This document shows positions 18,828 through 18,960 of a stretch of DNA of 64,000 nucleotides, piece by piece (positions within the stretch are counted from its first letter, which is position 1; each line of letters opens with the position of its first letter). The notes under the pieces were generated by a model. It was not told the DNA's origin. It worked only from the letters and a program-made list of their open reading frames with translations, and made no database searches. The stretch is from NCBI GenBank assembly GCA_964557535.1, contig CAZLAD010000003.1:89671-153670 (forward strand). Reading direction: 5' to 3'. Source of the stretch: an uncultured Candidatus Saccharibacteria bacterium. GTDB taxonomy: Bacteria > Patescibacteriota > Minisyncoccia > Phycocordibacterales > CSBR16-119. The translations under genes and the position numbers were made by a program.

Positions 18828-18960
18828 GCAAAAATAAAATAGAACCAAAAAGACGCGCGTTCTCGGCTGTAAACGCCGAGCCGCTAAAGACTCGAAAGGT
18901 CTGTCCTTCAAAAGGCAGACCTTTCTGCGTATTGTCTTTTTGGTTCTATTTTATTTTTGC
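18828..18960. repeat. Family A palindromic structured element, copy A1: 27-bp perfect outer stem (gcaaaaataaaatagaaccaaaaagac / gtctttttggttctattttatttttgc) enclosing two GC hairpins and a conserved linker (cgcgttc..ctgtaaacgcc..cgctaaagactcg..ctgcgtatt)
   Basis: Begins right after the rplK stop; copy A2 at 42701-42815 has compensatory changes in all three stems. Confidence 0.7.

Follow-up and report, generated by a model that had tools for sequence, protein, structure and literature searches.

The REP/BIME elements of enterobacteria are repeated intergenic palindromes that lie at the 3′ ends of genes, have a mosaic make-up in which arms are combined with alternative central motifs, and are thought to stabilise mRNA 3′ ends or to terminate transcription. 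In parallel, the Correia elements of Neisseria, the ERIC/IRU elements, and pneumococcal BOX form a class of 100-150 bp with long terminal inverted repeats, co-transcribed with their neighbours into long RNA hairpins, which in the case of Correia are substrates of RNase III, while BOX is modular (boxA-boxB-boxC). Two further systems come close to the elements described here, namely the bidirectional intrinsic (Rho-independent) terminators, which sit just past stop codons and between convergent genes with an A-tract, a GC hairpin, and a U-tract on both strands, and the integron attC sites, which are imperfect palindromes right after ORFs, with structure over arm sequence and with ...AAC / GTT... 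termini.

Here we describe Family A, a structured palindrome found twice in the window, as we call the whole 64-kb stretch of DNA that was analysed, and also in four other genomes. Family A is like the intrinsic terminators in its placement and in the general layout of its tracts on both strands, and it stands in for canonical ones at orthologous sites, but the “hairpin” is here a three-way junction of 80 nt, whose loop is invariant and whose junction strands are conserved, the element further has 20-28 bp A/T-rich distal arms and asymmetric conserved flanks, and its plus-strand U-run lies 9 nt away from the second internal hairpin, H2. It shares with REP/BIME the repeated 3′-end intergenic palindromes and the mosaic make-up, whereas the REP sequence is conserved, with a 5′ GTAG read by the RAYT transposase, and the arms of Family A vary with compensation; no GTAG was found in the element and no Y1-transposase among the called genes of any locus. 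The size class, the long inverted repeats, and the modularity (the latter as in BOX) are those of Correia, ERIC, and BOX, but copies of those elements are near-identical with little covariation, and Correia has TA duplications and hundreds of copies, while Family A is low in copy number, its stems covary, its internal loop is invariant, it keeps strictly to the post-stop position, and its flanks run in the sense of the upstream gene. Membership in integron attC was rejected despite the general likeness, given that GCAAAAC/GTTTTGC does not fit RYYYAAC/GTTRRRY and that the neighbours are syntenic housekeeping genes rather than cassettes; the conserved core is large, and there is no integrase or array. 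By analogy, the element would work like a bidirectional terminator and have a lifestyle like that of REP/BIME, Correia, ERIC, and BOX, without their defining features.

Position, anatomy, and predicted fold

The first copy, A1 (18828-18960, plus strand; covariance-model match of 134 bits), begins at the first base after the TAA of rplK (L11; 18396-18827, plus strand), a gene that is preceded by secE and nusG and whose 3′ end abuts the element. The second, A2 (42701-42815, plus strand), begins 10 nt past the stop codon of rpsR (S18; 42493-42690, plus strand), the last gene of rpsF-ssb-rpsR, and is followed by adk-map. Both palindromes are present where an earlier reading made from the sequence only had placed them, and, as it had also said, neither rplA nor rplI follows rplK or rpsR.

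All parts of A1 are given here on the plus strand. The A-rich 5′ arm (18828-18854) has a GCAAAA terminus, a variable middle, and a conserved inner end, AAAAAGAC, and leads into the junction strand J1, GCGCGTTC (18855-18862), nearly invariant in nine copies, whose GCG pairs with the CGC of J2. Hairpin H1 (18862-18880) consists of a covarying stem of 5-6 bp and the 7-nt loop TGTAAAC (18868-18874), and it is followed by the unpaired and conserved junction strand J2, CCGCTAAAGACTCG (18881-18894), by hairpin H2 of type I with the loop TTCAAAAGG (18895-18924), which is terminator-like in its A-tract, GC stem, and U-rich tail, and by junction strand J3, CTGCGTATT (18925-18933). The 3′ arm (18934-18960) starts with GTCTTTTT, becomes T-rich, and ends in TTTTGC. 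A2 has its 5′ arm at 42701-42721, H1 at 42729-42745, J2 at 42746-42758, H2, here of type II, at 42759-42785, J3 at 42786-42793, and its 3′ arm at 42794-42815, again on the plus strand.

Both copies are predicted to fold as three-way junctions in which the outer stem, H1, and H2 are connected by conserved linkers, with H1 enclosed by an invariant 3-bp helix, GCG/CGC. The fold energies are -69.1 kcal/mol for A1 and -62.5 kcal/mol for A2 (z = -11.7 and -9.2; 0 of 200 shuffles as stable), and the chance expectation of the 23-nt core motif in the window is 0.00. The outer stem of A1 is perfect over 27 bp, or 28 bp if A18827/T18961 is counted, and that of A2 consists of 18 perfect bp, a 1-nt bulge, and 3-4 further pairs, about 22 bp in total. 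The two copies can be aligned end to end, and every difference in their stems is compensated, as the sequence-only reading had claimed; its list of conserved linkers was also correct, and the H1 difference, compensated as well, is better read as one U-A pair gained or lost (CUCGGC/GCCGAG vs. CCGGC/GCCGG). Inspection by eye for a pseudoknot or tertiary pairing between the loop and the linkers or arms gave nothing convincing.

As to the surroundings of A1, the two ORFs downstream (19034-19348 and 19535-20395) have no Pfam match, and the region 3′ of the element is variable in the relatives, where a thymidylate/dCTP-deaminase/DHFR gene cluster comes next. Upstream, fusA and secE of the window are separated by a gene (14307-17411) that encodes about 1,000 aa with SdrD_B/CLIPPER repeats; one relative has such a gene at this place as well (L016:6141-9164), and another has one upstream of rpsF (L021:5676-8843). 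The absence of the gene from that position in the other relatives points to a variable surface-protein insertion within ribosomal-protein neighbourhoods. In a further relative (L019), an ORF of 71 aa with a GIY-YIG domain (1923-2138) lies between nusG and rplK, where L11 is N-terminally extended (166 aa), and it may be the remnant of a homing endonuclease.

Further copies, covariation, and constraint

A genome scan with a pattern built from the conserved unpaired segments gave five more copies, four of them (L003, L005, L006, and L008) in the metagenome-assembled genome (MAG) CAZTRC01 and one (L007) in another MAG, and the other two of its seven matches (L004 and L009) were rejected as chance, as was the single match (L010) of a scan of metagenomes with the pattern. 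The contigs of rplK and rpsR homologues were then searched by a covariance model, which added a diverged copy after rplK (L016) and one after DoxX (L019). The Family A set is therefore a small sample of nine copies from five genomes, seven of them outside the window in four other genomes.

In these nine copies, standard pairs fill 97.1% of the pair cells, against 44-50% when the partners are slid by 1-3 columns, and double (compensatory) changes occur in 26 of the 43 pairs, a number reached by none of 500 shuffles; H2 alone has 10 covarying pairs out of 13. MAFFT with RNAalifold, which is independent of the covariance model, recovered the same structure, with compensation at 17 of the 43 pairs. 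Nearly all changes in the core stems are double substitutions, wobble intermediates being very rare, and the arms of 24 elements comprise 478 Watson-Crick pairs, 3 G.T, and 5 A.C. The unpaired segments are conserved, since pairwise differences per site amount to 0.136 in the junction strands, 0.31-0.33 in the stems, and 0.44 in the flanks, and the H1 loop TGTAAAC is invariant in nine of nine copies and recurs in the permuted family A′ described below. Also invariant is the GAC/GUC helix that closes the junction, followed by U5-7, and the best-conserved stretch of the arms, AAAAAGAC...GUCUUUUU, corresponds to this GC-closed junction and then the U-run, mirrored by an A-run. The copies thus show strong covariation and not a simple MITE-like identity, and the proposal of selection on structure with conserved loops has gained from the seven additional copies, in which compensatory changes maintain the fold.

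Copies in orthologous positions (A1/L016 and A2/L005) have cores of 88-89% identity, compared with about 50% at the third codon positions of the adjacent genes, 64-82% in the arms, and 55-63% in the downstream spacers. Judged from these identities, the core of Family A is constrained, or kept homogeneous by some process. In addition, type I H2 occurs at rplK (window and L016) and also at the NYN/pnp site of the CAZTRC MAG (L006), that same MAG carries three near-identical type II copies at three different sites, and the core of L006 is inverted relative to its flanks. These three observations demonstrate that terminator sites have received copies of the cassette from one another or have exchanged it. 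L007 has an inverted H2 loop, and, more generally, one site holds different cores in close relatives and one subfamily occupies different sites in different genomes.

Family A is not in Rfam, and no description of it was found in the literature that we searched on CPR palindromic repeats, MITEs, and terminator elements. Rfam 15 at gathering thresholds gave 0 matches over the whole window, searches of each copy at E<10 returned only sub-threshold chance hits (miRNA hairpins, and a lysine riboswitch at 15.8 bits vs. a threshold of 30), and a scan for tRNA and tmRNA found none.

A wider family with a shared frame

Family A represents one kind of cargo within a modular, lineage-specific family of long hairpins in a CPR (Parcubacteria/Paceibacteria-like) clade, whose members share the frame (stop)CGCTYC-GCAAAAC-arm-cargo-arm-GTTTTGC-TYCGCTT. 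About 28 such elements occur in the 306 kb formed by the window and the related loci, and about 26 of them begin 0-20 nt past a stop codon. The two exceptions lie between divergent genes; one is in the window (57132-57266, plus strand), with GCAAAAC...GTTTTGC termini, a tccgctt flank, 30-bp arms, and an unrelated core, GCGCGCC...CCAGCTTTTACTGGCGCGC ACCCTTCGGGTG, and is found between divergent ftsK and DeoR-type HTH genes, hence not at any gene's 3′ end, and the other is L015:2706-2836. Without exception, the asymmetric flanks have the orientation of the upstream gene, although the orientations of transcription and replication are confounded in these data. Several elements (L003, L008, L019, and window 26556) stand exactly between convergent stop codons, and the last of these, cgcttcGCAGAATACAATT...AATTGTATTCTGCtacgct (26556-26652, plus strand), lies between convergent DoxX and YceI genes and encloses a canonical terminator hairpin. 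Finally, a half element (52406-52480, plus strand) follows a beta-CASP RNase gene in the window and consists of the right half of an “H” core and ...GTTTTGCTCCGCTTG, with no 5′ arm.

The cargo of Family A is the H1 module plus the terminator-like hairpin, and family A′ has both hairpin types in reverse order, with 25 of 46 pairs compensated. Further cores are called F, H, D, E, and G, some of them nested, with the flank motif repeated at inner boundaries. The commonest cargo is the F core, TCACCCTGCGGGAGCG...(variable hairpin)...CTAGGTCCTCGGGATTC, which is not in Rfam (tested for the window) and is conserved in several genomes and at several sites (L019:2651-2735, L024:10208-10279, L022:17324-17402 and 14521-14585, L023:18216-18315, and L024:15776-15865), also nested inside L013:8018-8163 and 17338-17471. 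The CAZTRC MAG has a tandem pair of wider-family members between DoxX and YceI (L013:17338-17471 and 17485-17647; also L006:2713-2874). In the G type, the flank falls within the true palindrome, GCTCCGCAAACC...GGTTTGCGGAGC, whereas elsewhere the flanks are direct repeats. In L018, the 5′ signature CGCTCCGCAAAG comes right after the DoxX stop codon (~16856-16910); behind it stands only a canonical terminator, and a corresponding 3′ arm is missing, which means that the 5′ flank motif can occur without the palindrome.

Two other palindromic families were seen in the same DNA. The second family has arms CCCCCACACC(A/T)A...TGGTGTGGGGG of 18-24 bp and spacers of 22-93 nt, and occurs in the window (10266-10400, 29163-29298, and 24927-24996) and in relatives (L006:6592-6724, L007:4497-4621, L013:4781-4845 and 9147-9214, L018:3858-3927 and 9169-9236, and L024:17235-17297 and 19905-19974); in several genomes it lies some 60-70 nt ahead of rpsL and secE, which indicates an association with promoters or leaders, not with 3′ ends. 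The third family, ATCCCGATAGTG...CACTATCGGGAT, has arms of 14-16 bp and, in most copies, a spacer of about 80-93 nt (window 17495-17605 and 46038-46156; L022:15805-15925, L024:9358-9468, and L019:5160-5242). Of these five copies, four have a 3′ arm that extends into the ATG of the gene behind it (secE at 17604, a gene at 46155, a beta-CASP RNase gene, and ssb), and L019:5160-5242 abuts no start codon. Such a hairpin in the leader may serve to sequester the start codon.

Orthologous sites and the terminator-cassette reading

The orthologous 3′ sites of rplK, rpsR, EF-G, DoxX/YceI, and beta-CASP genes carry either a canonical terminator (A-tract/GC-stem/U-tract) or one of these elements, so the elements replace canonical terminators there, both being found together only once, after rplK of L019. 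In the case of rplK, Family A follows the gene in the window and L016, the permuted family A′ in L011, L013, and L018, a plain 22-bp hairpin in L015, an F-type core plus the canonical terminator in L019, and an ordinary terminator only in L020, the most distant rplK relative. In the case of rpsR, Family A is found in the window and L005, an H-type core in L022 (the closest relative, with 92% S18 identity), an F-type core in L024, a plain hairpin with a T-run in L021, and a canonical terminator in L023.

Our preferred reading, which we put at a probability of roughly 55%, is that Family A is a modular bidirectional terminator or 3′-end cassette, which is copied from one terminator site to another or exchanged between them. 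The sequence-only reading had offered three options, a bidirectional terminator family, a leader or processing signal, and a scar or replacement linked to gene loss, and the first fits best, given that relatives have canonical terminators at the same positions and that both strands form Watson-Crick stems. A GC hairpin of terminator type, flanked by A and U runs, is present in every element. A terminator scan called the H1 side on the minus strand in both A1 and A2, followed by GCGTCTTTTT, and left H2 uncalled on the plus strand in both because only 3-4 U precede the 9-nt J3. Sigma-70-like promoters of the downstream genes, read from the sequence, come after the element; the scan listed none there.

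Several observations speak against this reading. The regions between divergent promoters hold two wider-family members (window 57132 and L015:2706-2836), the canonical terminator behind the element after rplK in L019 suggests that at least the F-type cargo is not a sufficient terminator, and the invariant loop, the conserved junction strands, and the distal arms of 20-28 bp go beyond what a plain terminator needs. The ordinary bidirectional terminators of the clade are themselves often perfect palindromes of 16-24 bp with complementary A-/T-rich runs, and extended ones (window 2295-2333, ~13669-13700, 53093-53133, and 60689-60724; L016:5663-5714; L011:15504-15550) are longer than termination would seem to require. 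The Watson-Crick-only helices of the family are consistent with a device that folds in transcripts from both directions, or with pairing at the DNA level.

A terminator cassette of this kind would work as follows. The rplK and rpsF-ssb-rpsR operons would be transcribed into the element, H1 and H2 would fold, and the conserved GAC/GUC closing helix would shut the three-way junction. The invariant U-run GUCUUUUU... would then leave a weak RNA:DNA hybrid at which RNA polymerase would terminate, and the folded domain would presumably shield the 3′ end from exonucleases. Since both strands read A-tract ... U-tract and have Watson-Crick helices, the element should act on transcription from either side. 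The distal arms may form a duplex of 20-28 bp in read-through RNA, or else a DNA hairpin or cruciform, and the purpose that we infer for the invariant H1 module is that its loop, together with the junction strands, would be a sequence-specific recognition surface for a putative factor. The fold, its constraint, the position, the substitution for canonical terminators, and the copying among sites are thus observed, and termination itself and 3′-end protection are inferred.

Alternative explanations

The best-surviving alternative, which overlaps with the terminator-cassette reading and would be compatible with a terminator role, is less probable; it holds that Family A is a selfish, non-autonomous mobile element (MITE/REP-like), recognised as folded ssDNA by a transposase or recombinase supplied in trans and inserting preferentially into terminator hairpins or a CGCTCCGCTT-like target, with the conserved loop and junction as a requirement of mobilisation and not a host function. 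Dispersed copies and polymorphic orthologous sites, as in MITEs, are indeed found, with several copies per genome (at least four in one MAG and two in the 64-kb window), with turnover of the core among Family A, H-type, F-type, plain hairpin, or canonical terminator after rpsR and among A, A′, F, plain, or canonical after rplK, and with one subfamily at non-orthologous sites. The inversions in L006 and L007, the half element at 52406-52480, and the Watson-Crick-only stems, as for DNA hairpins, also argue for mobility, and so does the nested architecture, in which CTCCGC reappears at the inner hairpin boundaries of cores D and E (L013) and also in the plain hairpin of L015, within its loop.

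More ambiguous is the 7-bp direct repeat GCTCCGC that overlaps both termini, like a target-site duplication, given that it is identical at unrelated sites, is oriented with the upstream gene as the flanks always are, and is absent from the canonical terminators at orthologous sites, so that it looks like a part of the element and not a duplicated target. Only about 7-10 terminal bases are shared among copies and the remaining arm differences are compensated, unlike the terminal inverted repeats that a transposase binds or that a MITE shares with an autonomous IS. The search of the 306 kb revealed no IS with Family A ends, none of the copies there has a transposase or HUH/RAYT-like gene next to it, and an autonomous element was not found at the orphan right end of the half element (52465) either, since this end is partnerless within the window and the genes around it encode a beta-CASP RNase, a SLOG-family protein, NDK, FtsK, and similar proteins, not transposases. 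Moreover, comparison of diverged genomes shows much stronger conservation of the core than of synonymous sites, the Family A pattern was not found in viral contigs, and blastn of A1 against phage and plasmid collections gave no match. A search for an “empty target”, CGCTCCGCTTGG, matched mostly coding DNA and was uninformative.

A more speculative reading, which we consider unlikely, is that the H1 module shared by A and A′ (GCG-UUC-stem-UGUAAAC-stem-GC-CGC), together with the conserved junction strands, is what an undescribed system recognises when it moves or exchanges the cassettes or reads them as RNA. In the first case, a hairpin-recognising DNA enzyme would put small structured cassettes specifically into CPR terminator hairpins, and in the second, a 3′-UTR-binding protein or a new catalytic RNA would be at work. 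If true, the terminators of this clade would be a programmable modular platform instead of simple hairpins.

Less probable still is an RNA working from one strand in the mRNA 3′ UTR, such as a 3′-UTR-derived small RNA with a seed in a linker, a regulatory RNA that binds a protein, or a new self-cleaving ribozyme set free when RNase III cuts the outer stem, a perfect duplex of 20-28 bp that would be a substrate of this enzyme. The greater conservation of unpaired nucleotides than of stems, with the invariant 7-nt loop, is what such an RNA would show, as are the three-way junction of about 80 nt with its strong covariation and a core that points the same way as the upstream gene (13 of the 14 copies of A and A′). 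However, G.U pairs are essentially absent and A.C mismatches equally frequent, which is atypical of selection on one strand, and this scarcity of wobble pairs together with the inverted core at L006 disfavours a one-strand RNA. There is, besides, no resemblance to any Rfam family, known ribozyme classes included, even at E<10, no promoter of their own precedes A1 or A2, and the complement of the conserved linkers and loop, sought as the target of a small-RNA seed, was not found elsewhere in the window.

The idea that the elements mark, replace, or compensate for lost rplA and rplI, be it as the scar of a deletion, as a regulatory RNA related to L1/L9, or as a substitute made of RNA, has only the positional coincidence of A1 after rplK and A2 after rpsR in its favour and retains almost no credence, given that secE-nusG-rplK is never followed by rplA in nine relatives, down to 65% L11 identity, also where the site has another core, a plain hairpin, or a canonical terminator, that the rpsR site behaves alike, with rpsF-ssb-rpsR-adk-map kept without rplI in all relatives with or without Family A, that Family A also follows LOG-like, NYN-like, DoxX, and other genes, the very placement away from ribosomal-protein loci that the sequence-only reading had named as speaking against it, and that the elements have no similarity to Rfam ribosomal-protein leader families. 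A ribosomal-protein autoregulatory leader (e.g., an L1-binding rRNA mimic) was rejected on like grounds, with the element 3′ of genes, found at other loci too, and without an Rfam leader match. Lineage-wide losses of this kind are a documented trait of CPR, with L1 missing from a Parcubacteria subgroup and L9 from several CPR groups (10.1101/2022.01.07.475337). Searches by tblastn with approximate E. coli L1, L9, and L10 queries against the window and all loci gave no match, and since L10 is absent too, this null result speaks for absence from the window only, not from the genome. The place of A1 and A2 beside rplK and rpsR is a coincidence of two operon ends that have the same terminator-site element, unrelated to the clade-wide absence of rplA and rplI, which removes the tempting but wrong inference that palindromes by rplK and rpsR are footprints of ribosomal-protein gene loss.

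Conclusions

Family A is a candidate for a new RNA/DNA motif entry, with nine copies, 26 covarying pairs, and a calibrated model, and the wider GCAAAAC...GTTTTGC family could improve the annotation of operons and terminators in these genomes, which belong to bacteria that are not easily cultured. The CPR/Patescibacteria have very small genomes with little non-coding DNA. This clade nevertheless keeps elaborate elements of 115-135 nt at the ends of its genes, and the cores of Family A are as conserved as the first and second codon positions of ribosomal proteins. The retention of such elaborate elements, with cores so strongly conserved, points to an unrecognised biology of transcript 3′ ends or to unrecognised genome dynamics in these bacteria.
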